44,301 nucleotides of DNA from positions 1 through 44,301 of the IMG/VR virus record IMGVR_UViG_3300037440_000087; one strand, written 5' to 3'. The stretch's first letter is position 1, and the number at the start of each line of letters is the position of its first letter. The DNA comes from a virus. Its lineage: Duplodnaviria; Caudoviricetes. Shown here piece after piece: positions 3,194 through 22,723 of the stretch. A program made the translations under genes and the position numbers. Below the pieces are notes generated by a model. The model did not search any database. It saw only the letters and a list, made by a program, of their open reading frames with translations, and had not been told where the DNA came from.

Positions 3194-5662
3194 TTATAGA
3201 CGCCAACTTCGTGGCTTGCCACCTTGGGTAGCCGTACCCCAGGTCTGAAGAGTCCTAAGTAGATATTTAGAGTCACGCTTAGTAGTAGTAATGTTCCATT
3301 GGACAGCATTCAACTCTTTCTGGACTGCCATATACCGTTTAACAGATGACTCGGATACAACTTCTGGTAGCTCAGTCGTGTCGTCGTGAAGAGTGGTATC
3401 GTGCAGGAAGGTATCATGACCGGCATTTATAGACTGGGTGGCTATGTTGGTTAGGTTCTTACTCTTTATAGTACCGAACCCCTTAGCCCGTTCAATACCG
3501 ACTAAGTCGATGGTAATTTCACCCTGGGGGTTGGCAAACTCAGTCTCAGCTTCCTCTGTAAACTGAAATTCAAAGCGGTTGTCGGTTGTTGGCAGCAAAG
3601 CTGTTTTAAGCGTCGTAGCAAAGGCCTCACCGTAATCGCCCGTAAAGTCTTCGCTTATCTCACTTAATCGGCTATCCCCAGGCTTCAGACAGAGCAGATG
3701 TTGCTCGCCATTGGTATCTGTGTACCGCAGGAATTTCTTAAAGCCTAATGTAAAGGCTCTAGGCAGCCAAGCTTTGCGTTCGGTGTCGTAAATAACCGTC
3801 GTATCGTTAGTATCTCCGTTGATTGGTACGGAAAAGTAAACCTTGGCATCGAAGTATTCAGTAGCGATATTAGCCTCTCCCGATTTCTTTATGCGTCTGA
3901 CACTAGGCCGGATGTTGGCGCTGTACTCATCGGTAGATAGCAAGTTCAGGAGCTGTGGTCGTGAGCCTAAGTTGTAGAAGCCTTGTGAGTTATAGAACAT
4001 AAAGTCGTTAAGCACATTGACTACGCTGCCCGGTGATGGCGTTCCACGGGAGCCAGGTAGCTTGTAGGCACTAGGAACCGTGATAGAAATATCTTCTATG
4101 GTCAATACCTCTAGAGTCAGCTGTAGGATACAACCTTGGCCGTCGGCACTCTTACACCAAACCGTAGCGTATGGGTCGCCTTTACCATCACGATAGTCTT
4201 CCACTTTAACCGGCATAAATTTACCGCCCTCTTGCCAGTCTAAATAGCCACCATCGTAGGCTGACGAGAATGCACCGGCAAACTGTCCGGCTCCTGAGAA
4301 CCAGATACGGTAGCGATTGTCGGTGTCCCTGACCCCATACATACGAGAGCCAACATTAGTTAGTTCTTCCACTAACGGGCCTTGCGAGGTGTTGTCAGTC
4401 GGAGCGGCAGTCCCAGGCACAGGCAACGCTGAGCCGTTGTCTTTAAAGGTCTGGCCGGTTAGCACGGTAGAGGCCAAGTAGAAGTAGTCCACGTCATTTT
4501 CGCTGATATAAATATCCATGCGTGTTTGAGTACCTTGGAAAGCAGCCGGTGTAACTACCACGAAGTTGGTCGTGTCATCCCAAGACTCACGAGGAGTCGC
4601 CGTTGTGATGGCAGATGAGGCTGCTGACGCTTCCGAAAACCCAACCGTATTAACAGCGGCTTGCTTGTAGTAGTAAGTGTACCCAGTACCGGTGTTGCCC
4701 GTCTTGGCTACACCCGGAGCAGCCGGTGTGGTTAGAGCCGTGTAAGTGGCTAAAGTAGTCGTGCCATCGTAACGTATGATGTTGTCCACTCCGTTGGTGA
4801 TGTATAGGAAGGACCCATTCTGGTTGAAGTTACAGTCATTACCGGCGGTATAACTACCACCAGTACATTCTGACCAAGTTGTGCCATCATCGGTTGAACG
4901 CCATATCTTACCACCAGCCGCCGCTACCAGATGGATACTGCCGTTATTATCAAAGTAGTCGAAGCCATCAATATCAGCGAAGTCTCCTTCACTTGGTGAT
5001 GGTGAGACTGACGGGCTGACCGAAGCTGATGGGCTAAGCGAATCTGAAGGACTGTTACTGGCACTAGGACTCACACTAGAACTAGGTGAGCGGCTATCCG
5101 ATGGTGATGCCGATATAGAAGCGGACGGGCTAAGCGATAACGAAGCTGAAGCCGAGGGTGACGAAGAAGGGCTGATGCTAGAACTAGGCGACATTGATTG
5201 TGATGCCGAGGGGCTTTCGCTGGCGGATGGTGACTCCGAAGCCGATTCTGAAGCCGAAGGACTAATGCTCGCTGAGGGCGATATGCTGGCTGACACGGAC
5301 TGGGAAGCCGAGGGGCTTAGTGAAGGTGATGCGGAAGATGAAACCGATGAGGATGGACTTATTGATGGACTTACTGAAGCACTTGGCGACCGGCTAGCTG
5401 ATGGAGACATCGACGAGCTTGGTGACGGCGATGCGCTAGGGCTAACAAATTGCCCCGGCGAGGAACCATACCAATCAATACCTGGTCGTGGCCCGGGATT
5501 ACCGTCTTCGTATAAGAATATGTTGTCAGCTACCTCTAGGGCATCTTTAGGTAGCTTAGATTTATCTATAAGAGTAATAACCCCTTTTCTCCAAGAGCTT
5601 AGGGTCAGGAAATTTGGCTCAGGAAAGGACTTTCGCCGACGGTTATTTATAGTCAGGGGCAT
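3194..5662 (-). CDS. Tail nozzle/stabilisation protein (T7 gp12 / P22 gp10-like) with Ser/Pro repeat insertion
   Basis: 822 aa, beta-rich; N-terminal ADNIFLYEDG-PGPRPG pattern seen in podoviral nozzle proteins; directly downstream of an adaptor-like gene. Confidence 0.65.
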   Translation of the reverse strand: MPLTINNRRRKSFPEPNFLTLSSWRKGVITLIDKSKLPKDALEVADNIFLYEDGNPGPRPGIDWYGSSPGQFVSPSASPSPSSSMSPSASRSPSASVSPSISPSSSVSSSASPSLSPSASQSVSASISPSASISPSASESASESPSASESPSASQSMSPSSSISPSSSPSASASLSLSPSASISASPSDSRSPSSSVSPSASNSPSDSLSPSASVSPSVSPSPSEGDFADIDGFDYFDNNGSIHLVAAAGGKIWRSTDDGTTWSECTGGSYTAGNDCNFNQNGSFLYITNGVDNIIRYDGTTTLATYTALTTPAAPGVAKTGNTGTGYTYYYKQAAVNTVGFSEASAASSAITTATPRESWDDTTNFVVVTPAAFQGTQTRMDIYISENDVDYFYLASTVLTGQTFKDNGSALPVPGTAAPTDNTSQGPLVEELTNVGSRMYGVRDTDNRYRIWFSGAGQFAGAFSSAYDGGYLDWQEGGKFMPVKVEDYRDGKGDPYATVWCKSADGQGCILQLTLEVLTIEDISITVPSAYKLPGSRGTPSPGSVVNVLNDFMFYNSQGFYNLGSRPQLLNLLSTDEYSANIRPSVRRIKKSGEANIATEYFDAKVYFSVPINGDTNDTTVIYDTERKAWLPRAFTLGFKKFLRYTDTNGEQHLLCLKPGDSRLSEISEDFTGDYGEAFATTLKTALLPTTDNRFEFQFTEEAETEFANPQGEITIDLVGIERAKGFGTIKSKNLTNIATQSINAGHDTFLHDTTLHDDTTELPEVVSESSVKRYMAVQKELNAVQWNITTTKRDSKYLLRTLQTWGTATQGGKPRSWRL
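4990..5445 (-). repeat. (SPSASx)n coding repeat, ~150 aa
   Basis: Translation shows alternating-Ser hexapeptides; boundaries approximate. Confidence 0.95.
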
Positions 5663-6358
5663 TTAAATACCCCAACCTTCTCCCCAGACTGAGCCGCTGT
5701 GGTCAGGTAACTTGAAAGGGTTAGCCCACGAACCAGAGTCGTTATCCATCTTCATCTTCATAAGGGCATTTTCAGCGTCCCTTAAAGCATCTTCATAGTA
5801 AGGGTTGCGTGAAGCCCTGAAGCGGTTGGCTAACATACGGTGGACTATGAAATAGGCATTACTCATCTCAGTCACATCCGTACCAGTCGTAAACTCTGTC
5901 GGTTGTTTGTAGTATGGATACTCTAAAGTTTTACCATTTAATGCGGCACTCGGAGCCGGATTAAGATGCAGCACAAAGCCGTTAGTGGGGTCTCCCGTGA
6001 AGTAAGCAAAGGTGGCATCATCGCCCTTGAAATGTACCTCATTAGGCTCGATTAGAGGCCACTTTTGGACGGTTTTGCCATTAGAATCTTTGGCTTTTAT
6101 AAAGCCGCCATATTCTGCCATATCACTTGGAGCGTCGTATTCTGTGTCACCAGTCGTAATCGTAGTATCACCGTCATCAGCCGTAGACAAGAAGTTGAAA
6201 AGCTCTTTCCAGTAAGTACCTTCGTAGGTTTTCCAGTGATTAATGGCTTCATTGGCTAGCGGTATGCCGATAACGTATTCGTCGTCACTACTGGCCGGTA
6301 TTTCGGACTCAGCCCTATATAAGGTGTAGTAAGCTCGGAATATTTGGTCATAATCCAT
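5663..6358 (-). CDS. Head-tail adaptor (tail tubular protein A-like)
   Basis: 231 aa; helical N-terminus, LHLNPAPS...LEYPYYKQP pattern; position next to nozzle gene. Confidence 0.6.
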   Translation of the reverse strand: MDYDQIFRAYYTLYRAESEIPASSDDEYVIGIPLANEAINHWKTYEGTYWKELFNFLSTADDGDTTITTGDTEYDAPSDMAEYGGFIKAKDSNGKTVQKWPLIEPNEVHFKGDDATFAYFTGDPTNGFVLHLNPAPSAALNGKTLEYPYYKQPTEFTTGTDVTEMSNAYFIVHRMLANRFRASRNPYYEDALRDAENALMKMKMDNDSGSWANPFKLPDHSGSVWGEGWGI

Positions 6359-6378
6359 GTTTGTTTTCCTTTTCCTTT

Positions 6379-6387
6379 AATATATCA
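6379..6387 (-). promoter_or_regulatory. Extended -10 promoter candidate (TGATATATT)
   Basis: Overlaps the TGA stop of the upstream gene; precedes AAGGAAAAGGAAAA RBS. Confidence 0.5.
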
Positions 6388-9300
6388 CACCTTAGACTTC
6401 TTCAGAGACACCTTCGGAAGACTGGTTTGTTTAGCCACTTTAGCCTTGGAACCTCCCTTTTTAACGGATACTTTCGGCTTTACCGCTTCACCCGCAATAT
6501 TAAGTGGAATGGCGTATTTAAAGGCCGAACCAGCCGACCTAGTTCCACCACCTCCTCCGCCAAAGCCAGATGAGCCAAAGCTACCGCCTTCAAACATAGC
6601 ATCATCGGATATTTTCAGCCCTAATGCCAATCGTTCGGCGTTCGTAAACTGGTTACTTTTAGCCCAATGTTCTAGCACGTCAGGATTCTGGTCTAGAAAT
6701 GCACTTCTAGCTCCCGTACCCTTTGGCAAAGTAAAGTAATGGTCTAGCTTCTTCTGAAGTTCGGCTACTGCCTTGGGCTTTTTAGCCCCGGAGTATGTGC
6801 TAGCCGCACGGTTTTCACCATCATCCTCACCTTTAATTTTATCGAAGAAGTCTGACTCTTCACCCCTAAAGTCGTCGTACCATTTCTCGTCTAAGCCTAG
6901 TGAAGTGAACAGAGGGTTGCCATTTTTATCGTATGCCTGCTTAGCGGCGTTTAAATCTTTACTGGCCCGGTAGCGCAACACTTTCTGTTGCTGCTCCGGT
7001 TTCAGGTCATAAAACGGATTGCCAACTTCGCCACGCTTTCGGGAAAGTTTATCTAACTCTGCCTCCGCTCTTAATACCTCGGGCATGGCTAGTAGCATCT
7101 TGGCTCTAGAAGCCGGTGAGTCGATAGTCTTATCCTTATTCTTGGTATGCAGTAACTCAAAAGCCTTGAAATCTGCTTCGTTTTTAAAGGTGTTAGATAC
7201 CGCTGTAAGGTCATCATAGAATTTCGCTCCCTTACTGTCACCTTTTAACTCTTTGCCAAACTGTCGCAAAAAACTATCTCTAATAGTAGACAGTGGATTG
7301 CCACTCTTATTTTGAAGTACGTCGCCACTAAGCCCGAAGTTGTTAAGTAAGGAGTCAATTTGTTTAGGTGACAGACGTATCCATTTAGACAAACCTTTAG
7401 CTGTTTCACTAGTGTAGTCTTTGTCAATCTGTTCTTCTAGCGGCAAAGTCTGCTCGTGGTCGCTAACTATCTGCTCACCCGTGCGTGGGTCACGGTTAGC
7501 TAATACGAAAAAGTTGGATAGCTGTGGGTTATTCTGTACAAGTTCCTTTGGATTAAGAGTCTTCGGCATGTCACCAGTAAAGTGGCCTAGTATATCTAAG
7601 GGGTTAGGCTGCTCGCCTTCGATACCAGCCGTGGCCCTCCAGGCCATACGGTTTAATGGGCGCATATCAGGGTTAATTGGTATCTTGTAGACGTTTTTCC
7701 ACTTGCCAGTCTTTTCATCTTTGTGAGCATCGGGGCGGACTATGATTATGTTGTTATCCAGCTCATATTCCTTGTCACTAGCTAGCATGTCATTGTAAAA
7801 TTCACGACCAGCCTCGTTATTCATATTGGCGTTTACCAACAAAGCGGCACCACCGACTAAAGCGGCATCAGTAGCTAAAGTTTGAAATGGCCGGTCTTTG
7901 TAAGCTCTAGCAAACGAACGAGCACCCGTCTGGATAGCACCGGAGTATAGTATGAGCGGTTCAGCGGCTCTGGCAGCTTCCGTAACACGGTTAAAGTTAC
8001 CCATCGCTTCGTTATAAGTCTGGGCTGCCTTGTTCATGGCCTGCTCTTCACTGAAGCCTTTTCGTTTGGCTCGTATATAAGTTGCCCTAGCCGTAGCCGA
8101 ACGGAATACACGGTCAGTAGCCGCAAATACCCTATCCAAAGAGTTGACCACTTCTTTCACAGTTAGCCATGGATTGTTGATAGTAAACTCAGCTAAGGAC
8201 TTGGCACTTCGCCGGTTAGTCGCCATAATCTCAGCTCTTACTTTGGGTACCGAGACACCTTGGGTAGCCCTAATCTCGTTTATACCAAAGCGCCGGAGGT
8301 TCTTAGAGCCAAACTTTCCGGCGTTAAACATGCCTAACACGCCGCTAATAATTGGGCGTACCCCTACTGAGCCTATACCGGCGTTGTGTACCATCAATAC
8401 CGGGTTTTTAACTAAGTTAAGAGCGGCGAATACCGGGTTTAAGACACCCGTAAACATAGCTTTAGCGGCCCGTACTGGCACGTTTGTCACGGCAGTCACT
8501 ACGTCCTTAGCCCCCGAAGGTGACAAACCTTGCATCATCTTGGCTACGTTACGTTCAAGCTGCAAGGTAGTTTTTTCTCCGCCAATGTAACCGCTATATT
8601 TATCCAAATTAAGCGCTTTGTCCGGTGCTAACTCTACACGCTCAGCGAATAAGGCCCGTTTTTGCCCGGCAGTCTCATCAATCTTCCCGCTGAGTTTACC
8701 TATCTCATCAGCCAATTTGGCATGGGCAGCAGAGCGTTTAGATAGAGATTCCCGTAAGGCCTTGTATTTACCAGGTTTAGCATCGGCCAGAGTATCAAAT
8801 ACTTGTAACAGCTCTTTGTTAGACAAGCCAGATATAGCCGCCTTAGCATCCACATCGTCAACCATCCCGGTTAATTCCCTCCGAGCCTGTTTAGCCGCAC
8901 TGAACTCTTTTTCTTTTTTAAGTAGACCAGCCACCCGCTTATCGGAAGTTTTTTTGCGTTTCAAGCTTATCAGTTTTTTCTGCTCTTCAACTAGACCTTT
9001 ATGGAGTTCGCCAGCCTGTCGGCGTCGTGCGGCTACTTCAGGTCGGTTTATAACCTTAGCTCCAATCGTACCTTGGTCAGCTCGCTCATACATTTCACGG
9101 TACATCCTAGTCTGTAGATTCTGTTTCTTGTCTCTAGAAAAGGTACTTAAAACAGATTCCCACGAATAATCAAGAGGCTCATCTCCACCCTTTCTAGCTT
9201 GTAGTACCTTCTGCTGGCCGGTTGACCCACGCATGCCACCTACCATCCTGCCTCTTATAAGTTCGTCACTCTCAGCCCTGCCTCCAGGAAAATAAAACTC

Positions 9301-10494
9301 ACGGGACTTTATAGCCGTATCGGCATCTTCTGGCCTTAATAGACCGGTCTCTACAGCCTCCCGCTCCATCCGGTCTTTGAATAACTTGATAGTCTTGGCA
9401 TCCAATGCGGCGGTAGGATTGGCCGCTTCAAATCCTCGGATAGCCTGTGCTAACTCCACCTCTGACAGGTTGGTTAGCCTAGTACCACCTTTCTGTAGAT
9501 TCTCTAAGTCGCTTCTGAGTGCCGTATAGTTTAGAAACTTCTTCATTTTATCGCCGCGCGGGTACTTCTGGATTACACCTCTTAACGATAGCCCGGCCTC
9601 TAACACGTCCTCTGATTGGGCCTTCAAGATAGAATCGGCATTCTGTAGGTCGTTATACAGTTTTGTCAGACTCTTTTCAGCGGGCAAGTCTCGGTAGTTA
9701 ACACCTGCCTTTTTAGCTAACTGCCTGTCGCTACGCTGGAACTCATTTAGGGGGTCGGCAACGTGACGGGTCACCGTTGAGCGAGTCCTATCTAACAAAG
9801 GCCCTTTGTTTAAATCTTTGGCAGTATCAGAAGCCTGTATCAGCTCGCCAGTTATTTCATCAGCAGACTTTTTAGTAACTGTCGGTAACGCTTCCTTAGC
9901 CCCTTTGGTTATAGCCGTTTTAACGGGTTTACCGCCTGGGACTACATCTAAACCTCCAAATAAAGCCGGACCAACTATACTAATTGCCGGACTCTCACCA
10001 ATCACATCCCTTACGAAAGGACTCTCAGATTGCTTGGCACCCTCCTGCATTTGTTTTATTTCGTCAAATACTGTCTGTACTGGCTCCTCACCATACAAGA
10101 ATTTACGGACTCCAGTATTAGTCCCTTGTTGTGAAGCACTAGCTGTAGGGTCTATGGCACTTACTAATGGTTGGGTGACAGACCGTAGGGTCCGTTCCGG
10201 TATCTTAGCAGTATCACGCAGCACATCTACTGCGAAGTCCCTAACTCCTATACCAGAACTAACGGCTGACTCACCCAAGGCTTTAGCTAAGCTGAACTGT
10301 GGCTGATTGCCTAGTTCGTTGATGTATTGTTGGCGGCGATTTGGGTCGGCTAATACTCCATAGCGTCCCGGCGAGGTGCTTAACTTTTGCCGGGCAGCTT
10401 CAATAGACCTCTGATTGGCTCGAAGTTCTTCCTCGTTTTGAGGTGTTAAAGCCTCCCAGATAGATGTACCTATCTTGCGGAGATTGATAGCCAT
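6385..10494 (-). CDS. Large internal virion/DNA-ejection protein, possible LPD38-like region
   Basis: 1369 aa, helical; SPKQIDSLLNNFG resembles LPD38-type segments; Gly linker and Lys-rich C-terminal tail; podoviral position. Confidence 0.6.
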   Translation of the reverse strand: MAINLRKIGTSIWEALTPQNEEELRANQRSIEAARQKLSTSPGRYGVLADPNRRQQYINELGNQPQFSLAKALGESAVSSGIGVRDFAVDVLRDTAKIPERTLRSVTQPLVSAIDPTASASQQGTNTGVRKFLYGEEPVQTVFDEIKQMQEGAKQSESPFVRDVIGESPAISIVGPALFGGLDVVPGGKPVKTAITKGAKEALPTVTKKSADEITGELIQASDTAKDLNKGPLLDRTRSTVTRHVADPLNEFQRSDRQLAKKAGVNYRDLPAEKSLTKLYNDLQNADSILKAQSEDVLEAGLSLRGVIQKYPRGDKMKKFLNYTALRSDLENLQKGGTRLTNLSEVELAQAIRGFEAANPTAALDAKTIKLFKDRMEREAVETGLLRPEDADTAIKSREFYFPGGRAESDELIRGRMVGGMRGSTGQQKVLQARKGGDEPLDYSWESVLSTFSRDKKQNLQTRMYREMYERADQGTIGAKVINRPEVAARRRQAGELHKGLVEEQKKLISLKRKKTSDKRVAGLLKKEKEFSAAKQARRELTGMVDDVDAKAAISGLSNKELLQVFDTLADAKPGKYKALRESLSKRSAAHAKLADEIGKLSGKIDETAGQKRALFAERVELAPDKALNLDKYSGYIGGEKTTLQLERNVAKMMQGLSPSGAKDVVTAVTNVPVRAAKAMFTGVLNPVFAALNLVKNPVLMVHNAGIGSVGVRPIISGVLGMFNAGKFGSKNLRRFGINEIRATQGVSVPKVRAEIMATNRRSAKSLAEFTINNPWLTVKEVVNSLDRVFAATDRVFRSATARATYIRAKRKGFSEEQAMNKAAQTYNEAMGNFNRVTEAARAAEPLILYSGAIQTGARSFARAYKDRPFQTLATDAALVGGAALLVNANMNNEAGREFYNDMLASDKEYELDNNIIIVRPDAHKDEKTGKWKNVYKIPINPDMRPLNRMAWRATAGIEGEQPNPLDILGHFTGDMPKTLNPKELVQNNPQLSNFFVLANRDPRTGEQIVSDHEQTLPLEEQIDKDYTSETAKGLSKWIRLSPKQIDSLLNNFGLSGDVLQNKSGNPLSTIRDSFLRQFGKELKGDSKGAKFYDDLTAVSNTFKNEADFKAFELLHTKNKDKTIDSPASRAKMLLAMPEVLRAEAELDKLSRKRGEVGNPFYDLKPEQQQKVLRYRASKDLNAAKQAYDKNGNPLFTSLGLDEKWYDDFRGEESDFFDKIKGEDDGENRAASTYSGAKKPKAVAELQKKLDHYFTLPKGTGARSAFLDQNPDVLEHWAKSNQFTNAERLALGLKISDDAMFEGGSFGSSGFGGGGGGTRSAGSAFKYAIPLNIAGEAVKPKVSVKKGGSKAKVAKQTSLPKVSLKKSKV

Positions 10495-10496
10495 TG

Positions 10497-11465
10497 TTAG
10501 ACCTCCTCTTCAGACCTGCCTCGTGGAAGTGTGAATAGTGGTAAGCTACTGCCTGCCGGTGTTCCTTGGAAACCAAGGTTAGTAGAAGTTGTTACGTCAA
10601 ATGGATTACTCGGCGACGTACCAGCTAATGCCAGCTCCGAAGCTGTACGCTGGCGCTCTTCTAAGCTAGTAGGTGCAACCTTAGCTTGACCAAGCATCTC
10701 GTCAAATCTGACTAATTCCTGCAAAACCTGCTGTTTAATGCGGTTTTTCTCGGATTCAATATTTATCTGCTCCGGTAGTGAAGCATCGGTCATAGCGGCA
10801 TCTAGCTGGGCTAATGAATTCCTAGCGTCAGCTACTATGGTGTTTACTACCCGTGATTTATCTTCGTCAAACTTCCTAATGCCGGTCGCCTGTTGGCGTT
10901 CCAGGTCTTCCTGAGCCATACCAATCTGCCTGCCTTCTTGGGCGTATGGGTTAAGCACATCGCTAGTCAGGCGGCGTTGCCCGATATTACCATAAGCCTG
11001 GGCCAAGGCTTCTGTAGCGCTGGAATCTGAGGCATTCTTACCGGCCAACATAGTCCCACCACTTCTAAGCCCACGGCTAACCATATCTAGTATGCTGTTG
11101 TATCCTTGTTTCTTGCCTAACTCATTTTGCACACCACGTTCATCAACAGTTCGTTGTCTAGTCTGTAGCATGTCAACAAAATCTAGAATACTACCTTTAC
11201 GAGAGGTAGCAGCGGCACCTGCGGCATCTTCCGCCGTGCCGTAAATATTCTCTTTCTGGCGGTCAAAACCCGATGTCAATTTATTATAAGCATCTTGTCC
11301 ACCCCATTCTGCGAATGGGTCTGGCGCAGTGGTTGCACCAAGTACAGATGTATCTAAGTCTTGTGGACGAGTTTGAGGCAGACCTGGTTGTCGGGGTGGA
11401 ATATAATTCTTGGCGACAACTTCCGGCTCAAATGGTCGGTTAAGACTAGTAGTTGGTGATGCCAT
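10497..11465 (-). CDS. Internal virion/ejection protein
   Basis: 322 aa A/Q/G-rich helical protein immediately upstream of the large internal protein. Confidence 0.55.
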   Translation of the reverse strand: MASPTTSLNRPFEPEVVAKNYIPPRQPGLPQTRPQDLDTSVLGATTAPDPFAEWGGQDAYNKLTSGFDRQKENIYGTAEDAAGAAATSRKGSILDFVDMLQTRQRTVDERGVQNELGKKQGYNSILDMVSRGLRSGGTMLAGKNASDSSATEALAQAYGNIGQRRLTSDVLNPYAQEGRQIGMAQEDLERQQATGIRKFDEDKSRVVNTIVADARNSLAQLDAAMTDASLPEQINIESEKNRIKQQVLQELVRFDEMLGQAKVAPTSLEERQRTASELALAGTSPSNPFDVTTSTNLGFQGTPAGSSLPLFTLPRGRSEEEV

Positions 11466-11477
11466 TATGAACCTCCT

Positions 11478-12329: not shown

Positions 12330-12386
12330 TTTATTTTCCTTTTTGTTTGTTCTTTATGCTTTTATGCTACCATACTATCTACTATT

Positions 12387-12716
12387 CTAGGCTATTTTGT
12401 TCCTCACCTGCCAAGCAGCCTGGTTGTATAATATCTCTACCCCGCCACCACCATAGGTTACTTTTATGTCTCCGACGTACCTGCCTTTATTCGGAAAGTC
12501 TGTCGATTCGGCGGCGTAAGATATGACCCCACCAGTAGCATCTGTAACAGTACAGGTCTGGTGTCCGACGTTGGTTATATCACCACTAGACTTCTCTTGT
12601 AAGATAAGCTCAACTGTTGCACTACTCAAGTCTATGTCTACGCCATCACGCTGACAAGTTATCTCGTAAGCGGGAGCAGTGTTGTTTTGTACGATGAAGA
12701 AATTTGCGCGTGCCAA
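12387..12716 (-). CDS. BppU N-terminal-like adaptor domain protein
   Basis: FIVQNNTAP...IDLSSATV...VTDATGGVISY...GRYVGDIKVTY pattern of BppU_N/DUF2479-like Ig folds. Confidence 0.6.
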   Translation of the reverse strand: MARANFFIVQNNTAPAYEITCQRDGVDIDLSSATVELILQEKSSGDITNVGHQTCTVTDATGGVISYAAESTDFPNKGRYVGDIKVTYGGGGVEILYNQAAWQVRNKIA

Positions 12717-13473: not shown

Positions 13474-15168
13474 TTATCTTCCTCCTGGACTATTTATATT
13501 TGCCGATGTTGTAGGGTTGGAAGAGCTAATCGGTGACGCATCTGTTGTAATGATAACACCGTCATCATCTGGATTAGTCACAGTTGCTTTTTTAGGTGGT
13601 ACCGGTGGAGGCGATGGTGATAGCGAGGCGCTAGGTGACAATGAAGCCGAAGGTGATACAGAGGCCGATGGGCTGATTGACGGTGATTTACTAGCACTCG
13701 GGCTTACGGAAGCACTTGGGGATATAGAGGCACTAGGGCTGCCCGGCGAAAGACTGGCACTAGACGATGGTGAAATTGATGCCGAGGCAGAAGCGCTAGG
13801 GCTGATACTCGCCGATGGGCTAATACTCGGACTGATACTAGCAGAGGGACTAATACTAGCACTTACGCTAGCTGATGGACTAATACTAGGACTCACGCTA
13901 GCTGAAGGGGATATACTCGGACTACCACTGGCTGACGGACTTATAGATGCGCTTGGTGAAATTGAAGGTGACTCACTCGCACTTGGTGAAATACTGGCAG
14001 ACGGTGAAATACTTGGCGACCCTGAAGCACTTGGAGAAATAGAAGCACTCGGACTTATACTTGGACTTGTGCTGGCTGAAGGTGAAGTTGAAGCACTTGG
14101 ACTAATAGAGGCACTAATGCTGGCACTCGGACTCACAGATGCTGATGGCGATACCGACGGGCTTATAGAAGCAGAGGGACTTACACTGGCACTTGGACTG
14201 ATACTAGGGCTAACAGAGGCACTTGGAGATATTGACGGCGAGACCGAAGACGATGGCGAAATACTCGCACTTGGTGAAATGCTTGGGCTTACCGAAGAGC
14301 TAGGACTTACGGAAGCCGAAGGGCTAATAGAAGAGCTAACACTTGCCGAGGGACTTCTAGATGCCGATGGTGAGATAGAAGGTGATATTGAAGCGCTTGG
14401 CGACCGGCTAGCGGAAGGACTTATAGAGGGAGAAACCGAAGCCGAAGGGCTGATACTGGCACTAGGACTGATACTTGGACTGATACTTGAACTTGGTGAT
14501 ATGGAAGCACTTGGACTAATTGTCGCTCCAGCACCAATAAACCCAGTAGCCGCGGCCATCTCGTCCATGTAATGAGTGCTAGTAGCATCTTCGGTATAGG
14601 TAATACCCCAGTCAATCTTTTGGAAAGCGTCAGCTCCGGTATTTATATTCCCGCTGTCATAATCGGGACTGCCTTCAGTAGTGTTATCAATCCATACTTG
14701 TATGCGGCCAGTGGTTCCATGCTTCAGTATTCTAATTTCAATCGTAAACACAGAGTTTATAGGCAGGTTTATGCCTGTGTCAGTATAGGCGACGTCACCT
14801 CCGAACGTTAGGCGAGTTGAGTTCGGAGCAGCACCATAGTTTTCTATATTGGCATATAACTTATCAACATCGCCTGATGTTCTAAGAGCAAACAAGCCGG
14901 AATAGCCAGCCGTACCAACAGAAAAGCCCGTTGGTATAAACATCTTCATTTGCAAATATATCTCAGTACGGGTCGCACCGAGTAAATAGCTCGCACCGGC
15001 CGCACCCTCGCCAGTGGCGGCTAAAGCTAGGGAATTGCTATCAGCTACCTTAGAGGTAGTGTCAAGTGTGGCTGTGGCAGCACCAAAAATAGTCCCTACG
15101 CTGTCAAACGTCCACGGGGTAGAACCGCTTTCAAAGTCTTCAAAGCCGAATAGGTCAGGCGCTGCCAT
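13474..15168 (-). CDS. Virion accessory/adhesin-like protein: ConA/LamG-like jelly-roll head + long Ser/Pro stalk
   Basis: FEDFESG start; FTIEIRI...GRIQVWID...HYMDEM pattern of ConA-like folds; ~300 aa SPSASI tract. Confidence 0.65.
13610..14520 (-). repeat. (SPSASI/V)n coding repeat, ~300 aa
   Basis: Longest tract; synonymous codons vary between units; boundaries approximate. Confidence 0.95.
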
Positions 15169-15201
15169 TAATGTACCTTTTTGTTTTTAATGTTTACAAG
15201 T

Positions 15202-16893
15202 CTATTGTACTATGCCATCAAACTGTCCTGGTTGCCATCCTGGAATTTCGTCATAACCTACCTCCCTAAAGTTAGCGCCGGTAGATTTATCACGGAAGTC
15301 TTTAAGACTCCATTTACTACGCGTCAAGTTAGTGCCATGTTCCCGCACATCTATATTGCCCACTTCCGAACGCCAGTTTTCGTATTGGCTAGTATCTCTA
15401 CCTCCTGGCTCGTAACTGCGGTTAAACTTGTCAGTCAATACCTGTTCCAACTTATTCTTATACCATGCCAGTACATGTTCTCTGTAACCACACAACTCGG
15501 CTACTTGGTTAGCGTCCCAAGTCACGGTCTTACCATCGCCATAACGCATCCGCCAGACGTTAAGATTGTAGTAAAATTTATCCTTTTTAGGCGGGGTAAA
15601 GTCGAAATGGCTGGGATGATACAGCACGTCAGACTCACATAGGTAGACTATCTCGGCATCACTAGCCTCCAAAGCGGCAACTATCTGCCGGAACATCGTC
15701 AGCACACTTCTTTCACCTATTACGTGGACATTCTTACCCATGTCCATCGGTTTTAGCGTGGCACTGGCAATAGGTATACTCTTCTTCTTACTAATCTGTT
15801 TCAGGTTATCGACCACTTTATTAGCTAGGGTTTCGTCTAGCGCACAGTCTGAGTAGAAGATGATGCCTTTTGACGGGCCTTCCATCCTCTCTTCACGCTG
15901 TTTCTGGGCTTTAAATTCTGCTTCGGTCCATCTAGCCTCTGGGTCAGATACCCGTTTTAAGTCATCCCAGAAACGCTCTAACACCCATGATAGCGGCCTG
16001 ACCTGCTTGCTCCACTTGCCGTTTTTGAATATGTCTTGGGATATTCTTCGAGCCTTCTCTTGGTCTCTACCGGACATCGGATAAGGGAATGAAAATCCAT
16101 TCTGTGTACGGAACATGTGAGCATACCACGTAGATTTATTACAGACTACCCGACCACCACTAAGCCAGGTTTTAAGAGCTACTTCAGTACCCTGCTGTCC
16201 CCAACTACCCCAAGTTTCATCACAAATGTTAAGCTCCCAGTATTTCTTCCTAGTTAGCATAAAAAACGACCCTTGAAGACTCATAGTATCTACCAAATGG
16301 CTACCAGATTGCTCCTGGGTGCGTTTTAGTTCTCCGAAGTATTTAAACTGTAGATTAGTATTAAACCGATAAGCGGTAGACTGGGGGCTAGGTTTAGCAA
16401 ACCACTTTACATCCTTGTGAAAAGAGTATTTCTTAGCTGGGCAACTGGTATTAGCGCAACCCTCGGGCATTGGTCCTTGGTAGGTTTCATGTCCGCAGTC
16501 GTCGCACTTCCAGCTAAAGGCGTGGAGGTTTCGCATAACAGGCACTATTGTCCAGTCGTCATGGCCCTTCATAGCCTCCATTAACTTAACGTCAAAGCCC
16601 TCGCCAAAGGCGCAGTGGGCATCGGTTTTAGCCACATACTTAGCTTGGGACAGGCGTGCCAATCTATTGGTCATAGCCCTCTGGCCTATCGATTCCGCCA
16701 TGTAAACTATTCGTACATCTGGGTGGTCAGGTATGCCCGGTTCAGCCCAAGCTCCATCCAACCCTACTATCACCTCTGTCCTGCCCCGTTTATTCTTCAA
16801 GATGTCAGCTACCGTATTAGAAATAAACTCCTCATTACGAGCCGGTATTAGAATACTTAAATCGTACTTGGGCATCTCCACGACTAAATCCAC
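15202..16893 (-). CDS. Two-domain glycosyltransferase: ppGalNAc-T-like GT-A domain + second GT-A-like domain
   Basis: LSILIPARNE, KTDAHC (DxH), WGQQGTEVALKTWLSGG, YAHMFR; C-domain LCESDVLY. The start may be the ATG at 16875. Confidence 0.85.
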   Translation of the reverse strand: MDLVVEMPKYDLSILIPARNEEFISNTVADILKNKRGRTEVIVGLDGAWAEPGIPDHPDVRIVYMAESIGQRAMTNRLARLSQAKYVAKTDAHCAFGEGFDVKLMEAMKGHDDWTIVPVMRNLHAFSWKCDDCGHETYQGPMPEGCANTSCPAKKYSFHKDVKWFAKPSPQSTAYRFNTNLQFKYFGELKRTQEQSGSHLVDTMSLQGSFFMLTRKKYWELNICDETWGSWGQQGTEVALKTWLSGGRVVCNKSTWYAHMFRTQNGFSFPYPMSGRDQEKARRISQDIFKNGKWSKQVRPLSWVLERFWDDLKRVSDPEARWTEAEFKAQKQREERMEGPSKGIIFYSDCALDETLANKVVDNLKQISKKKSIPIASATLKPMDMGKNVHVIGERSVLTMFRQIVAALEASDAEIVYLCESDVLYHPSHFDFTPPKKDKFYYNLNVWRMRYGDGKTVTWDANQVAELCGYREHVLAWYKNKLEQVLTDKFNRSYEPGGRDTSQYENWRSEVGNIDVREHGTNLTRSKWSLKDFRDKSTGANFREVGYDEIPGWQPGQFDGIVQ

Positions 16894-17897
16894 TCCTTAT
16901 GAGCTTGTTGCCAAGCGATAGTGTTTTTCATGCTTGTTCTAAGGTCTACCGGCGGTTTCCACCCCATAGCCCGCAACTTATTGTCTTCCATACCGTAGTG
17001 GATGTCATGTGCCGGATTATCTTTATGAAAGTCTACCAACTCGTATTTCAGCTCTTTGCCCATCAATTCAGCTATCAGCCGGGCTAACTCCAAGTTATTA
17101 AGTCTTTCACTGCCGACTATGTGGTAACGGTCAGGCTCGTCAATCTCTCCCTGTTGATGCTCGTGCGGTTTGGTATTCTGCAAAATAAAGAGCAGGGCAT
17201 CGGCTGTGTTACGTGAATGTATGTAGAAACGTGAACCTATCTCTTCTTCGTTACCATGGATAGTAACAGTTTCTCCACGCTCTAACCACTTCTGTATCAT
17301 CACCGGGAACTTACTACCACTCTGGGTCTCACCGAAGTTATTCATCGTATTAGTGACAATGAGCTTCACCTCACCGGCCCGCCAGTAAGCGTGAGCTACT
17401 AGCTCTCCGGCCCCCTTGGAAGCGGCATACGGGTTGGATGGACGCATTACGTCCCACTCTTTATGAGGATTGCCCTCTCCGGTCGTCGGACCGTAAACTT
17501 CATCGGTGGAGAAGTAGACAAAGACTTCATGCGGTGTCTCTTTGGCATAGTCTAACATCGTCATGGTTGTCGCTACGTTGTTCATGACCGTATAGCGGGC
17601 ATTTTCTACCGAATATTGCACGTCAGAAATAGCAGCTAAATGTAAGATGTAGTTTACCGGTCCTATCCTGTCCTTATCAGTTTCAGATAGGGGACAAGCC
17701 AAATCGGTCTGGATTACCGTGAGACGAGGCTTCCACTCGGGGTGGTCGGCTAGAAAGTCGTCTATCCTGACTCTGTAGCCTTTTTGCCGGAATGAGTCCA
17801 GGCCGACAATCTCCCAGTTAGTGTTGGTGAAAATGTGGGCCATGACATGTACGCCGATGCTTCCACCGATGCCTGATAGTAAAACTCTTTTTGACAT
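16884..17897 (-). CDS. NDP-sugar 4,6-dehydratase-like SDR (RmlB-like)
   Basis: GIGGSIG, STDEVYG and YAASK motifs. Confidence 0.85.
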   Translation of the reverse strand: MSKRVLLSGIGGSIGVHVMAHIFTNTNWEIVGLDSFRQKGYRVRIDDFLADHPEWKPRLTVIQTDLACPLSETDKDRIGPVNYILHLAAISDVQYSVENARYTVMNNVATTMTMLDYAKETPHEVFVYFSTDEVYGPTTGEGNPHKEWDVMRPSNPYAASKGAGELVAHAYWRAGEVKLIVTNTMNNFGETQSGSKFPVMIQKWLERGETVTIHGNEEEIGSRFYIHSRNTADALLFILQNTKPHEHQQGEIDEPDRYHIVGSERLNNLELARLIAELMGKELKYELVDFHKDNPAHDIHYGMEDNKLRAMGWKPPVDLRTSMKNTIAWQQAHKEWI

Positions 17898-17907
17898 AGT
17901 CTCTCCT

Positions 17908-18585
17908 TTATTTCTTAGTTTCGTAAAATTTCATTACGTCTTTCGATTTGCCCCAGTACGGTATTTCTTTTGCCCTTAGTTCCCCTAACCGTTTACGGGT
18001 GCCTAAGTTGCCAAACGAAATAGCATCTTCATGCGAGAACACAATGTTAGGTGGGTTAGTCCAGAAGTCTTCTACCGGCCAAGTTTTCAGACCCAATATC
18101 CTCTCATACCGGCCCGGCTCTCCCCAACTACCTTTAGGCGGATTATCTACCCGTTCCTGTATAGCTTCTATGAAGATGTCCCGCTCGCATATTAGGCTGT
18201 GAAGATTACGCCTACCTTTCCACGAAAATACCTTTGGGTTCCAAGTATAAACACACCAATAGCCACGGTTGTAGGCAAACCTGCCATCTTTAGGACGATG
18301 TTTGAAATGTTCCGGCGAATATAACACGTCATCTTCACATAGAGCAATATACTTAGTTTCAGCCATTTTGGCTCCTAAAAGAGCCTGTTTATATAAATTT
18401 AGGTGAGACCTTGGAGTATCCTCCCAAATATTCTCACCGAAGTCCATGGGTTTCTTAGAAACACTTACTATCGGTATGCCTCGTGCCGCCTTCTTAATCT
18501 GCCCCGTCACTATTCCCATAAAATAGTCACTAATCTGGTTAGCTGTGTAAAAAACTACTGTAAGGTCTTCAGGTACTCTTGCCAT
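17908..18585 (-). CDS. Putative GT-A glycosyltransferase
   Basis: YIALCEDDVLY motif; paralogous to the C-domain of 15202-16893. Confidence 0.7.
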   Translation of the reverse strand: MARVPEDLTVVFYTANQISDYFMGIVTGQIKKAARGIPIVSVSKKPMDFGENIWEDTPRSHLNLYKQALLGAKMAETKYIALCEDDVLYSPEHFKHRPKDGRFAYNRGYWCVYTWNPKVFSWKGRRNLHSLICERDIFIEAIQERVDNPPKGSWGEPGRYERILGLKTWPVEDFWTNPPNIVFSHEDAISFGNLGTRKRLGELRAKEIPYWGKSKDVMKFYETKK

Positions 18586-19418
18586 GTGTCTAACCTCTCT
18601 TTATATATCTTAAAATACGGGTGCGATTCATCGCCCTGCCAGTAGGTCTCGTTAAGTTGGATGCCGAGCGCTTCGTTCTGTAGGTTCTTGAATACGTCAG
18701 AAGCCCTCTGATGATTAACGGTAGCGTAGCCTGTCACGGCTGCCCAGCCTCTTTCGTCTATCTCACGCTTAGCCACGATTCCGGCGAATATGTCATCAAA
18801 CCGGTAGACCCCTTCATCCCACGGTGCTTGGAATATATAAGGCAATAACTTCCGTTTGAAAGCCATATTCATGGCGCAGACTGGGAACAAGATGCCTTTT
18901 GGTACTACCCCCTGATAAAACGTTGTGGGCCGATGGCTGCCCAATACCAACTGTGTCGGCGCGTCCCAGTCTGCCACTCCCGTCCAAACCCCATGTGATA
19001 ATACCACCTCAGCTTCTGTCCGTATACCGTATGGAAAACCTCGGGTATAATCGCCAGCAGTCATCATCCAACTAACTGGAACGCGCCTATCTAAGGCATC
19101 AATATGGTCCTGTATCGGGTCTCCGACAGGTATTAAATCGTCGTCTAGGGTGATTATAAATTGCACGTCGGGTAAGTTCTTAGCCACATAGGCAAACCCT
19201 AAATTACGGATACCGGCGTTAAAGTTGGTCAGACAACTTTCGTACTTACCCATCACCTGCTTTGGGGTATATTTCTTACCCCGGTGTTCCAGTTTTGGTT
19301 TCTTACCATCCCAGACGGTTATAAGTTCTACTTGGTGTTTTTCAAATAATGGATTCCAAGCCTCTAAGAAGGTCTTGTAACTTTCAGGGCGGATAGTAGG
19401 CACGATTATAGCTATCAT
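18555..19418 (-). CDS. Reversibly glycosylated polypeptide / UDP-arabinopyranose mutase-like (GT75)
   Basis: LDDD, RGFPYGIR, SHGVW...DWDAPTQL, PKGILFPVCAMNMAF and RFDDIFAG match the plant RGP motif series in order. Confidence 0.85.
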   Translation of the reverse strand: MIAIIVPTIRPESYKTFLEAWNPLFEKHQVELITVWDGKKPKLEHRGKKYTPKQVMGKYESCLTNFNAGIRNLGFAYVAKNLPDVQFIITLDDDLIPVGDPIQDHIDALDRRVPVSWMMTAGDYTRGFPYGIRTEAEVVLSHGVWTGVADWDAPTQLVLGSHRPTTFYQGVVPKGILFPVCAMNMAFKRKLLPYIFQAPWDEGVYRFDDIFAGIVAKREIDERGWAAVTGYATVNHQRASDVFKNLQNEALGIQLNETYWQGDESHPYFKIYKERLDTWQEYLKTLQ

Positions 19419-20074
19419 TTGTGATGTGTTACCAGACTGATGTAACCCGACTTGTAAATCGGCTCATCTAATGTTTTAACTTTAATACCGTGTTTCCTGA
19501 GCAGATATGGAAGTACTACTTGGTCACAGGTGAAATATCTGCTACCTGTGTACCACCAGTCCATCAACATAAAGCGTACCTTCGGAGTGTTGCGATATAC
19601 AAATACGGTAGAAGCATACAGCCTGTCGTCTTCGTAAATCGGATTCTCTTCTAGAATTCTCTCATATTGCTGGCGATGCAGACCGTTTTTGTAGCGTGAC
19701 ACGATGTAAGGTCTACCTCTATTAAGGTGGTCTTCGATATGCTCGACTTCTTCTTTTATGGTATGCCGATACGGATGGGCAAAAAAGGCCATATCATTAT
19801 CACCTAGTTGCCTCAAATACCATTCTATACAATCATCTCTCTGAAATGATACTGTGCCGTCTAACCAGATGTAGACATCATGGCCGGGTAGCATTTCCCA
19901 ACCATGAGTCTTAGGTATACGGTACTGTAGCCTTGGAGTCAATCCCGTAATAGGTGGAAAGTTATCATCAGTCCAGCGATAGAATGTGAAGTCTACAGTC
20001 TGTGGTTTGGGGTCAATAAGCTTGTCAAAATCCCCCAGAACGCTGGTTAAGACTGCTATTTTATCAGGAACCAT
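19415..20074 (-). CDS. DUF616/TOD1-MUCI70-like glycosyltransferase
   Basis: AVLTSVLGDFD, RIPK, IWLDG, FAHPYR and DQVVLPY motifs. Confidence 0.7.
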   Translation of the reverse strand: MVPDKIAVLTSVLGDFDKLIDPKPQTVDFTFYRWTDDNFPPITGLTPRLQYRIPKTHGWEMLPGHDVYIWLDGTVSFQRDDCIEWYLRQLGDNDMAFFAHPYRHTIKEEVEHIEDHLNRGRPYIVSRYKNGLHRQQYERILEENPIYEDDRLYASTVFVYRNTPKVRFMLMDWWYTGSRYFTCDQVVLPYLLRKHGIKVKTLDEPIYKSGYISLVTHHK

Positions 20075-20616
20075 TGCGGCTGTCTGTCATCTTCTTTAGG
20101 ATTTTTTAAGTCCCATGGCGTAGTTTGTAAATCGTATCCATGCTCTTCAACAAATTCATTTACTGCCCGTATAACACCTATATTACCGGAACGCATCATG
20201 TAGTAGTCATCACCACAGACGACACCGCCTTCGCGGACCTTCGGAGTCCAAGCCTTCAGGTCCTCCTTAACGTGTCCATAACCATGGTTGGCATCTATAT
20301 ATACAAAGTCTAACGAACCATCTACAAAATCCTTAGCCGCTTCAATAGAAAACTTTTTGACTAATTGGCATCTTGGATAAGGCTTTAGTCTGACCTGGGC
20401 CAACTCATAAGCATTTATCAGCCGTTTCTGGTTCATGTGGTCGCCATAGCCGGGATAAGCCTGCCAAGGGTCAATACTATACAAATCCAAATCCGGTATC
20501 TGCTGGCAAAGTATCTCCGAGTAATATCCGTCGAATACACCCACTTCAGCACCAACTTTATATCCGCTATCTCTTAAAAATTGCGCTAACTCTAACCTGT
20601 TATTTACTCTTGCCAT
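20056..20616 (-). CDS. Class I SAM-dependent methyltransferase (Methyltransf_24-like)
   Basis: AEVGVFDG, SIDPW, DFVYIDANH and CGDDY motifs. Confidence 0.9.
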   Translation of the reverse strand: MARVNNRLELAQFLRDSGYKVGAEVGVFDGYYSEILCQQIPDLDLYSIDPWQAYPGYGDHMNQKRLINAYELAQVRLKPYPRCQLVKKFSIEAAKDFVDGSLDFVYIDANHGYGHVKEDLKAWTPKVREGGVVCGDDYYMMRSGNIGVIRAVNEFVEEHGYDLQTTPWDLKNPKEDDRQPQWFLIK

Positions 20617-21568
20617 CTTTTTCCTCTTTCATTTCTTTAAGCCAGTTATCATTTTCGTATTTACGAGCCTCGGCATCAGCTTTAGCATCACGGGGCAGAC
20701 GCTCTTTCCAGTCATCACCCCAGCCTGGCATGTCCGGAAACTTCTTCATGAACCAGTCCCAGTCATATTTAAAGTCTTTGGTGTTTAACCAGTAGTCGAT
20801 ACAGTATAAGCGGCCCTTCTCTTTTAGAACAGCCCACTTTTTCCACTGTTCTGTGGTAAATCCATAGTTAGTGCCGTACTTCTTACCTTTGTGGAGGTGG
20901 GCATACCAAGTCTTTTTATTAACTACTACCCGTCCGCCAGTAAACCAAGTCTTCTGGCTTATCTCCTGTGACTCGTGGGTAAACGGCCCGTAGTAAGTAG
21001 AATCCATCTCACCTATACAGTTATCCCAGTGCTTCCTGGCCATAAAGTAAGCCGACCCCTGCATGGTCGGCGTATCGTCTATCAAGGTGTCTAGGCGGTC
21101 ATAGTACCGCTGTTTCCATTCCGCCCCGTGCAAGCCTTGAGTAGTATCCCCAATTTTGGCATAGGGATACTCAACGTACATGTAATCCACCGGCTTGCGC
21201 CCATCTTCTATTAGTTTCCAGTTTTCTACGTCTAATCGCTCACGCCGGGGTATGACTACCCAATCATTTTCACAATCGGCCGCCAGTTTTAGGTCAAATC
21301 CTTCATCCCACATGGTGTGACCGTCAGCTTTCAAAATGTACTCACCACTAGATAAGCGTACTCCTAGATTGATGCTCTCTCTCATGCCGAAGTTATTGTG
21401 GACTTCACCGTGGTGGATAACCTTTACTCTCGGGTCATTTACTATCTCTTGCCACATACCATCCAAGACTACGATGATTTCAATTTCACCATGAGCTTTG
21501 GCTAGCATATCTTTTATAGTCTGGTTAATCCAACGCTCATTTCTGGACGGTATGATAACGCTAATCAT
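20600..21568 (-). CDS. GT-A glycosyltransferase, ppGalNAc-T-like
   Basis: ISVIIPSRNE, KADGH (DxH), TPTMQGS, EISQKTWFTGG and YAHLHK motifs. Confidence 0.85.
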   Translation of the reverse strand: MISVIIPSRNERWINQTIKDMLAKAHGEIEIIVVLDGMWQEIVNDPRVKVIHHGEVHNNFGMRESINLGVRLSSGEYILKADGHTMWDEGFDLKLAADCENDWVVIPRRERLDVENWKLIEDGRKPVDYMYVEYPYAKIGDTTQGLHGAEWKQRYYDRLDTLIDDTPTMQGSAYFMARKHWDNCIGEMDSTYYGPFTHESQEISQKTWFTGGRVVVNKKTWYAHLHKGKKYGTNYGFTTEQWKKWAVLKEKGRLYCIDYWLNTKDFKYDWDWFMKKFPDMPGWGDDWKERLPRDAKADAEARKYENDNWLKEMKEEKDGKSK

Positions 21569-22442
21569 TTAGCTGTTCTTTCACCCAGTCAGAGACTTCA
21601 ACTGTCGGACTCCACCCTTGGTAACGAGCCTTGGCATTATAGGCTAGTGTCTCTCTAACCTCTCCCGATACTTCACCAATATATTCTTTCTTACACGGAA
21701 ACATATCAGCTAACTCATTTATCGACAAACTATGGCTAGCTCCTATGTTGTAAGTACCGCGCCAGTTAATAGCCATCAGATTGGCTCTAGCAACATCTTT
21801 CACATAGGTAAAGTCTCGGCGTTGTTCACCATCACTGGTAATAGTCAAAGCTTCACCATCTCTAAACTGTTGCATAAAAATACCCACAACTGTACGATAT
21901 GCACCTTCCAGCGGTTGTCTTTCACCATAAACACTGAAATAACGCAAAATAGCGTAGTCTACTCCGTAAAGACGATTGTACAGGCGAATGTATTGCTCGC
22001 CGATAAGTTTTTGCAGAGCATAAGGAGATGCTGGCATGATTTCACCATCTTCATCTGTAGGTATATCTTCACCGGTATATACCGAGCTGGAACCGCTATA
22101 CACTAACTTAGCTTTATCTCTTCGGCAATATTCTAATACCTGTAAAGTACCGTCAACATTGGCATGATTATGGGTAATCGGGTCTTTTATAGAAGGCTGT
22201 ACTCGAGCTAAGGCAGCTAGATGGAATACCACATCGAATCCATTTAAGGCCCGCCAAGTTTCCGGGTCAGTAATATCAGCATTTATAAAGGTAGCTTCAG
22301 GATTTAAGTTATTAACGTCGCCCGTAGAAAGATTATCTAGTACAACAACTCTATTCCCCGCTTCTATTAACTGGTCTACTACATGGCTACCTATGAAGCC
22401 AGCACCACCAGTTACTAAACAATTCAGCACCAACGTAGCCAT
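21561..22442 (-). CDS. UDP-hexose/HexNAc 4-epimerase-like SDR
   Basis: VTGGAGFIG, HLAA, SSSVY, YALQK and RDFTYVKD motifs. Confidence 0.9.
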   Translation of the reverse strand: MATLVLNCLVTGGAGFIGSHVVDQLIEAGNRVVVLDNLSTGDVNNLNPEATFINADITDPETWRALNGFDVVFHLAALARVQPSIKDPITHNHANVDGTLQVLEYCRRDKAKLVYSGSSSVYTGEDIPTDEDGEIMPASPYALQKLIGEQYIRLYNRLYGVDYAILRYFSVYGERQPLEGAYRTVVGIFMQQFRDGEALTITSDGEQRRDFTYVKDVARANLMAINWRGTYNIGASHSLSINELADMFPCKKEYIGEVSGEVRETLAYNAKARYQGWSPTVEVSDWVKEQLND

Positions 22443-22723
22443 TTTCTAAACTCCTCCGCATCAAATATTATTTCTTTGCCATCGACATCCAATATAAATT
22501 GGTTTTCCGGAATTGCTCTCGGATATACCCAAACTCCTTTGTAACCTGGCGGAGGTTCCTGCCTTGGCACCGGCCAGTACATTTTCACTCCATTAGTTAA
22601 AACGACCTGGCCTTGGTCCCGGGTCGTCATTAAACCGTAACCTCTCTTCCGGCTCTTCTGTCGGTCATCCTTAGCTTTTTCAGCAGCTAGGATTTCGTCG
22701 GCGCTCTGATTGCCGTGTCTCAT
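22424..22723 (-). CDS. Hypothetical protein heading the glycosylation cassette
   Basis: 99 aa; overlaps the epimerase start; ATG lies at the predicted transcription start. Confidence 0.6.
   Translation of the reverse strand: MRHGNQSADEILAAEKAKDDRQKSRKRGYGLMTTRDQGQVVLTNGVKMYWPVPRQEPPPGYKGVWVYPRAIPENQFILDVDGKEIIFDAEEFRKWLRWC

Follow-up and report, generated by a model that had tools for sequence, protein, structure and literature searches.

The 44,301-base virus record IMGVR_UViG_3300037440_000087 (Duplodnaviria; Caudoviricetes), analysed over its whole length and called the window here, carries on its minus strand four otherwise different open reading frames (ORFs) that share a tract with serine at every second residue, together with a co-oriented cassette of eight genes between the tract genes and the capsid gene (Table 1). 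Both had been reported in an initial annotation and both hold up: the four ORFs are present, with tracts of 152, 134, 54 and 303 residues, and the cassette comprises four glycosyltransferase (GT)-like genes, a GT75 mutase, two sugar-nucleotide short-chain dehydrogenase/reductase (SDR) genes and a methyltransferase gene. Judging from the sequences, we consider it likely that with this self-contained module the uncultivated phage O-glycosylates its own virion, so that the tail hub, and probably three accessory proteins of the particle as well, would bear a mucin-like brush.

The alternation is strict throughout three of the tracts, and in the fibre-like protein it runs for 258 residues before a single phase shift. 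After residue shuffling (2000 per protein) the longest alternation reached 14-20 residues, against the 152, 134, 54 and 258 observed, and the four tracts account for 102 of 106 S-P-S-x-S matches over all six frames. Proline makes up about 30% of the spacer residues and recurs mostly every six or four residues, threonine is nearly missing (0-2 per tract), and the serines of the four tracts amount to 342 per set of monomers. All six kinds of serine codon are mixed in the tracts, and any pair of tracts has at most 12-17 nucleotides (nt) in common at the DNA level against 9-15 identical residues at the protein level, so the alternation is maintained at the protein level. An assembly or DNA-repeat artefact was considered as well and is ruled out by the mixed codons, the scant DNA sharing and a second, identical assembly from the sediment metagenome run that is the likely source (0 differences over 3001-23000; probably the same data, hence a check of the sequence only). 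The tract proteins of the window have no hydrophobic segment above a hydropathy of 1.43, no signal and no anchor.

Two soluble enzymes of the cassette are predicted to be relatives of the GT27 polypeptide N-acetylgalactosaminyltransferases (ppGalNAc-Ts), a class that the initial annotation had not named, and to have a priming role. The two-domain enzyme (15202-16893) has a GT27/ppGalNAc-T-like N-domain up to about residue 337, with D91-x-H93, W231-G-Q-Q-G-T-E237, H259 and a four-Cys insertion, followed by an alpha/beta C-domain with a second GT-A/nucleotidyltransferase-like fold. The single-domain enzyme (20600-21568) has D82-x-H84, E199, E202 and H224, and the profile of its family aligns with ppGalNAc-Ts along about 210-250 positions (best E 9e-12). 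In both, the GT-A catalytic fold is nearer to GT27 than to other GT-A families, and the closest solved relatives are protein O-glycosyltransferases that start mucin sugar chains in animals. The Gal/GalNAc-T motif W-G-G-E-N-x-E reads W-G-Q-Q-G-T-E in the former enzyme and F-T-H-E-S-Q-E in the latter. The GT27-like family counts thousands of homologs; the D-x-H metal motif is present in 142 of 149 and the third His in 149 of 154.

The cassette genes overlap their neighbours by 4-31 bases or sit 10 bases apart, and none of the eight proteins has a membrane segment. Counted over phage loci, the core of the module is the two GT27-like enzymes plus the methyltransferase, with the mutase and the epimerases as accessory members. 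The suggestion that the cassette makes sugar donors needs a qualification: the predicted donor-making genes are accessory, the GT75 mutase occurring in 9 of 56 phage loci and the two SDRs in 8 and 2. The GT-like protein of 17908-18585 is a paralog of the C-domain of the two-domain enzyme (hhalign probability 99.9) and has no family match and no PDB sequence match. At E 1e-5, a tblastn search of 50,697 annotated phage records gave no match to the two-domain enzyme, the one cassette gene searched in this collection.

Table 1. Features of the window discussed in the text (aa, amino acids; SAM, S-adenosylmethionine; E, E-value).
Position	Strand	Feature	Match, occurrence or tract
3194-5662	-	predicted tail hub/nozzle, P22 gp10-like, 822 aa, 152-aa alternating-Ser insertion	tract residues 74-225, nt 4988-5443; Ser in 76/76 alternate positions
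5663-6358	-	head-tail adaptor, SU10 adaptor family, no tract	PF24175 E 6e-9
11478-12329	-	283 aa; about 150-aa virus-type domain split by 134-aa tract	tract residues 63-196, nt 11742-12143; Ser in 67/67 alternate positions
12387-12716	-	BppU-N-like small protein, no tract	PF10651 E 3e-5
12748-13473	-	241 aa; 161-aa globular domain plus 54-aa tract	tract residues 162-215, nt 12829-12990; Ser in 27/27 alternate positions
13474-15168	-	fibre-like protein of 564 aa with an N-terminal domain of 217 aa, a tract of 303 aa and a tail of 44 aa; lacks a hydrophobic signal or anchor	tract residues 218-520, nt 13609-14517
15202-16893	-	two-domain enzyme, predicted priming enzyme	Pfam GT2; core gene
16884-17897	-	sugar-nucleotide SDR	nearest dTDP-glucose 4,6-dehydratase (below cut-off); accessory
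17908-18585	-	GT-like, E84-D85-D86; predicted chain-extending enzyme	28/56 loci
18555-19418	-	RGP/GT75 family; predicted pyranose-furanose mutase	PF03214 E 7.5e-33; accessory, 9/56 loci
19415-20074	-	TOD1/MUCI70-like GT-type protein	PF04765 E 0.0039 (below cut-off); accessory, 14/56 loci
20056-20616	-	SAM methyltransferase; predicted sugar O-methylation	Methyltransf_24, PF13578 E 9e-17; near-core, 45/56 loci
20600-21568	-	second GT27-like enzyme, single domain	Pfam GT2; core, 56/56 phage loci
21561-22442	-	sugar-nucleotide SDR	nearest GalE-type 4-epimerases (below cut-off); accessory
22424-22723	-	99-aa gene at upstream edge of cassette	conserved in this phage family, with or without cassette
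22783-22769		terminator-like hairpin downstream of major capsid gene	
22992-23849	-	major capsid protein, without Ser tract	
31645-31695		perfect 12-bp unit, 4.2 copies, just upstream of first plus-strand gene, where cumulative GC skew turns	possible origin or regulatory site
31727-35665	+	start of other arm: 486-aa protein of unknown function, class II glutamine amidotransferase (33117-34346), RimK-like ATP-grasp protein (34943-35665)	
36011-36589	+	early arm: CAP-domain protein, hydrophobic N-terminus	

Tracts equally common in related phages without the cassette had been set beforehand as a possible refutation of the proposed system. The outcome supports the system: among 50 phage records and 251 Patescibacteria genomes, tracts turned up in the cassette-bearing ones only. 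The 50 whole virus records were the larger ones among the loci from the enzyme, tract and hub scans; ten candidates were omitted for size, and one of these (L006) has cassette and tract. The enzyme is present in nine of the 50, and the same nine have tract matches (E 8e-17 or better). Weak tract matches (E 1.5e-5 or worse, 16-37% identity) came from three of the 41 enzyme-less records, and no alternating tract was seen in the two of these three that were inspected. Among the positive records G063 and G064 had been picked by trait and G021 was first found via the enzyme; minus G063 and G064 the table reads 7, 0, 0 and 41 (Fisher p 1.4e-8, kinship ignored). The starred branches of a quick hub tree (47 rows, tracts removed) force at least four changes of state. 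On the enzyme side, counted over the best 80 of 494 confirmed phage loci and the best 80 of 155 cellular loci, a tract is present in 65 and 47, and at loci with at least 5 kb of downstream sequence in 45 of 48 and 30 of 33, respectively. The three cellular exceptions (two genomes) have their tracts elsewhere in the genome; those in phages are two 7-9-kb fragments and one 53% complete record in which no tract was found. A tract-first search of the collection with the fibre-like protein gave 578 pattern matches, two of them confirmed, both adjoining cassette genes; the low yield probably arises because low-complexity matches do not pass confirmation. Tracts without cassette are accordingly covered by the 50 phage records and by the sets of 251 and 351 genomes, with 6-9 tract candidates scored per genome.

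In the closest relatives the cassette occupies the place of a post-capsid gene of about 310 aa. Next after the capsid gene comes a gene of mostly 308-330 aa in 14 of 15 loci that lack the cassette (L002, L005, L007, L008, L010, L012, L015, L016, L018, L019, L020, L021, L023 and L026) as against none of six cassette-bearing loci; it was not found in the whole records G000, G001, G003 and G034, and its product has no family match. Because of this exchange of place, the cassette probably replaces protein decoration with a glycan coat.

The tract-bearing 822-aa protein is most likely a tail hub, as indicated by the likeness of a tract-less homolog to the PF11134 Phage_stabilise cluster (Atlas 0.95), which we take to be of P22 gp10 type, by the PHROG matches of distant members of its family (virion structural protein in 13 of 56, head closure Hc3 in 6 of 56) and by its place between the SU10-adaptor-like gene and the fibre gene; the protein itself has no PHROG match and no direct Pfam or PDB match. 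Two hub loci came from a single-protein scan and at least 75 from an alignment scan. The homologs are mostly 635-690 aa long, and the stretch between two conserved glycines measures 8-10 residues in 48 of 56 aligned homologs, with a tract of 142-156 residues in five and other insertions in three. Four of the five tracts share one site and the fifth (L059) lies past the next conserved strands, and tracts at two different hub loops point to independent insertion. In a cassette-less relative (L055:8595-10802) the same loop carries a different insertion of about 65 residues, which suggests a permissive exposed site. A second family of about 535 aa with a tract near the N-terminus occurs in other cassette-bearing phages (L137:16871-18478, L105:15578-17188, L133:15901-17499 and L062:9031-10698) and is possibly another tail-hub type.

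The initial annotation had assigned all four tract proteins to the virion module; this stands on good evidence for the hub, and by position the other three would be virion parts too. The 283-aa protein with the split domain is possibly a capsid decoration protein. Its close homologs all bear tracts, and a distant one, in L038, lies shortly after the major capsid gene, has its tract at the C-terminus and shows domain likeness to unnamed viral clusters only; tract proteins come after capsid genes in unrelated phages, this homolog among them. The 161-aa domain of the 241-aa protein recurs within longer tract proteins of other phages, and the N-terminal domain of the fibre-like protein has no family match.

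The phage host is probably a member of the Patescibacteria, since the best cellular matches of the two-domain enzyme are records titled Saccharimonadales or Saccharibacteria (57%) and portal relatives occur in six genomes out of 351 from the class of the Saccharimonadales record, three of them at 35% identity and deep within large contigs. The system had been proposed as phage-encoded; it does lie on a phage genome, but it is not phage-specific, as chromosomes of Patescibacteria have it too, next to giant tract proteins. Among the centre genome and 250 evenly drawn Patescibacteria genomes, the enzyme was found in four and tracts in the same four. For the class of the Saccharimonadales record, represented by the centre and 350 genomes, enzyme or tract was found in the centre only; the Patescibacteria genomes surveyed are incomplete. 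Tracts lie far from the cassette within the same genome in G269, G321 and G322; the enzyme of G269 is matched in part and lies on a different contig. The chromosomal versions (L242, L266, L267, L289 and five more) consist of the cassette and, after it, a tract protein that has no signal, reaches up to 2,372 aa and has a C-terminal module common to these loci. L267 and many other records with the locus, including a 938-kb chromosome, are titled 'uncultured Gammaproteobacteria'; their size and gene context suggest mislabelled Patescibacteria.

We hypothesize that late in infection the two soluble GT27-like domains would prime the tract serines in the host cytoplasm with a first sugar, whose donor would be of the N-acetylhexosamine kind by analogy only. 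The second GT-like domains and the TOD1-like protein would extend the chains and the methyltransferase would cap them, while the SDRs and the mutase would add to the range of donors in a host poor in biosynthesis, and the modified proteins would assemble into the particle. Catalysis on the tracts, the donor, the order of the steps and the entry of the three other proteins into the virion are what we infer here; the sequences show the tracts, their presence inside a conserved tail-hub homolog, the fold and motifs of the enzymes, and that tracts and enzymes are gained and lost together. The coat may serve for shielding, for anti-sticking or for mimicry of the host's own glyco-fibre.

Several observations weigh against glycosylation of the virion. 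Co-occurrence is a functional coupling and does not tell modifier from modified. In an alignment to GalNAc-T1 the first Glu of W-G-G-E is replaced by Gln in the two-domain enzyme, and the single-domain enzyme retains that Glu but not W-G, so the donor may not be UDP-GalNAc. Two partial records (G320 and G323, 53-55% complete) have the enzyme and no tract, and a 5.7-kb fragment (L183) has a tract and no enzyme. Among the tract proteins, the evidence for a place in the virion is good solely for the putative hub, and in three cassette-bearing phages whose hubs are in the tree (G046, G049 and G063) the tract is in other proteins and not in the hub.

A role at the host surface, in which the tracts are glycosylated and the fibre-like tract proteins exported as Patescibacteria adhesins by an auxiliary or conversion module, would fit the chromosomal versions, where the same cassette precedes giant tract proteins in non-prophage contexts and TatC lies near 9 of 80 cellular loci (with TatA in L242). 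Sugar-nucleotide genes of Patescibacteria phages have also been interpreted as auxiliary genes that serve adhesion at the host surface (PMC12911398, in part). We nevertheless hold this role unlikely: the tract is inserted in a tail hub homolog and in genes just after the capsid genes of unrelated phages, the tract proteins of the window lack signal and anchor, TatC is near none of the 80 phage loci, and no integrase was named among the window proteins scanned in general family scans. Quite improbable, in our estimate, are unmodified flexible stalks or spacers with a cassette whose target is a host polysaccharide or lipid and which accompanies them through linkage alone. Fibres often contain low-complexity Ser/Pro linkers, the Pfam label of the enzymes is GT2 only and most tract genes adjoin the cassette, yet linkage leaves unexplained why a hub tract 9.5 kb from the cassette occurs in cassette-bearing phages only and at two sites, as well as the tracts distant from the cassette in the three genomes named above; the nearest solved relatives of the enzymes and the strict serine periodicity despite scrambled codons also speak for modification.

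Another chemistry on the serines, such as a sugar-phosphate or another phosphodiester-linked group that the nucleotidyltransferase-like second domain would add, with the GT27-like domains acting later, appears very improbable to us. Glycosylation of phage DNA bases against restriction is hardly credible. Phage glycosyltransferases often have this function (PMC12619734, in part) and the methyltransferase matches a PHROG labelled DNA methyltransferase, but the cassette is part of the late structural operon, the scan of 26 proteins of the other arm named no base-modifying enzyme, and the coupling of tract and cassette would be left unexplained.

The closest known enzymes are the GT27 ppGalNAc-Ts, which act on mucin repeats (GalNAc-T1, 1xhb/8v9q; GalNAc-T2; Toxoplasma GalNAc-T3). 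These have a C-terminal ricin-type lectin domain and an N-terminal membrane anchor. Where these carry the lectin domain, one window enzyme has a second GT-like domain, which is alpha/beta, and the other, being single-domain, has nothing; no lectin Pfam match was found in either. The window enzymes also differ in being soluble and unanchored, with a top 19-residue hydropathy of 0.89 and 0.93 against 2.35-2.74 in two membrane-type window proteins. They further differ by W-G-x-Q for W-G-G-E, by the four-Cys insertion, by tracts nearly free of threonine and by their occurrence in phages and Patescibacteria. The staphylococcal Ser-Asp adhesins ClfA, SdrC and SdrD also have alternating serines, and their SD repeats are glycosylated by dedicated GTs; their weak NCBIfam matches here, far below cut-off, come via the tract only, and the window has no Asp alternation, no wall anchor and different enzymes.

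Serine-rich repeat proteins (SRRPs) of Gram-positive bacteria combine alternating-Ser repeats with GtfA/GtfB, signal peptides, LPXTG anchors and SecA2/SecY2 (PMC6973325, in part). The present system resembles them in the serine at every second residue, in the adjoining variable set of extending GTs and in the cytoplasmic stepwise glycosylation predicted here, and differs in its proline-rich spacers (about 30%) and in the tract being a portable insert in several unrelated proteins. No GtfA/GtfB or SecA2/SecY2 family was found among the scanned proteins of the window, and no long signal peptide or C-terminal LPXTG anchor in its translations. Virion glycosylation by phage-encoded GTs, with a proposed glycan shield, is described for Che8 and other mycobacteriophages, with glycans reported at capsid and tail-tube C-termini and, in Maravista, genes near the 3' end of the genome (PMC11256854, PMC12619734, both in part). 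Phage-encoded GTs are common to both systems, and the particle coating described there is predicted here; unlike in mycobacteriophages, the capsid protein is tract-less, the predicted acceptors are long internal tracts in the hub and accessory proteins, and the cassette lies inside the structural operon. Papers on Patescibacteria phages take GT and sugar-nucleotide genes as host-surface auxiliary genes, and the consulted parts of these sources do not mention serine repeats (PMC12911398, PMC12647753). No description of the combination of tract and enzyme was found in literature in which subscription journals are mostly uncovered, and the auxiliary metabolic gene tables of these two papers may include the genes. 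Virion glycosylation and serine-repeat O-glycosylation are known kinds, and the enzyme family is undescribed.

The ends of the window overlap by about 150 nt (1-151 and 44148-44301, in two matching blocks of 126 and 25 nt) and its stretch 3001-23000 sits at a shifted position in a 44,156-nt contig of the second assembly (run X1), so the phage genome, with a completeness rating of 100%, is probably complete and circular or terminally redundant. The minus strand encodes, in order, the small terminase, large terminase, portal, probable scaffold (by position), major capsid protein, cassette, accessory proteins, an LPD38-domain giant protein, the SU10-type adaptor, the 822-aa protein, a Gly-rich fibre and an M23 peptidase, a layout that would be of the short-tailed phage type. 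The capsid protein has at most 30% identity to any of the 50,697 annotated phage records. The cluster at the start of the other arm presumably recalls phage amidoligase/GATase/ATP-grasp modification clusters, the amidoligase label being our assumption and without family match.

More tentatively, and with doubts of our own, we propose that Patescibacteria and their phages run an undescribed, bacterial-side mucin-type O-glycosylation, in which a soluble GT27-like family would read a portable S-P-S-A-S tag on any protein. Phages would repeatedly have put the tag into essential virion proteins, the glycan brush replacing protein decoration and mimicking the host adhesion fibre, and among prokaryotic enzymes these could be the nearest relatives of the eukaryotic GalNAc-Ts and may form their sister or source lineage. 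Glycoengineering now brings the eukaryotic GalNAc-T2 into E. coli (PMC13345888, in part); if our reading is true, work of this kind in the cytoplasm could make direct use of a prokaryotic GalNAc-T-like enzyme that is soluble and has a short, portable acceptor tag. Mucin-type priming chemistry would then not be limited to eukaryotes, many 'O-antigen' auxiliary genes of such phages would become virion-modifying genes, and virion glycosylation would be a widespread tag-directed strategy in the phages of candidate phyla.

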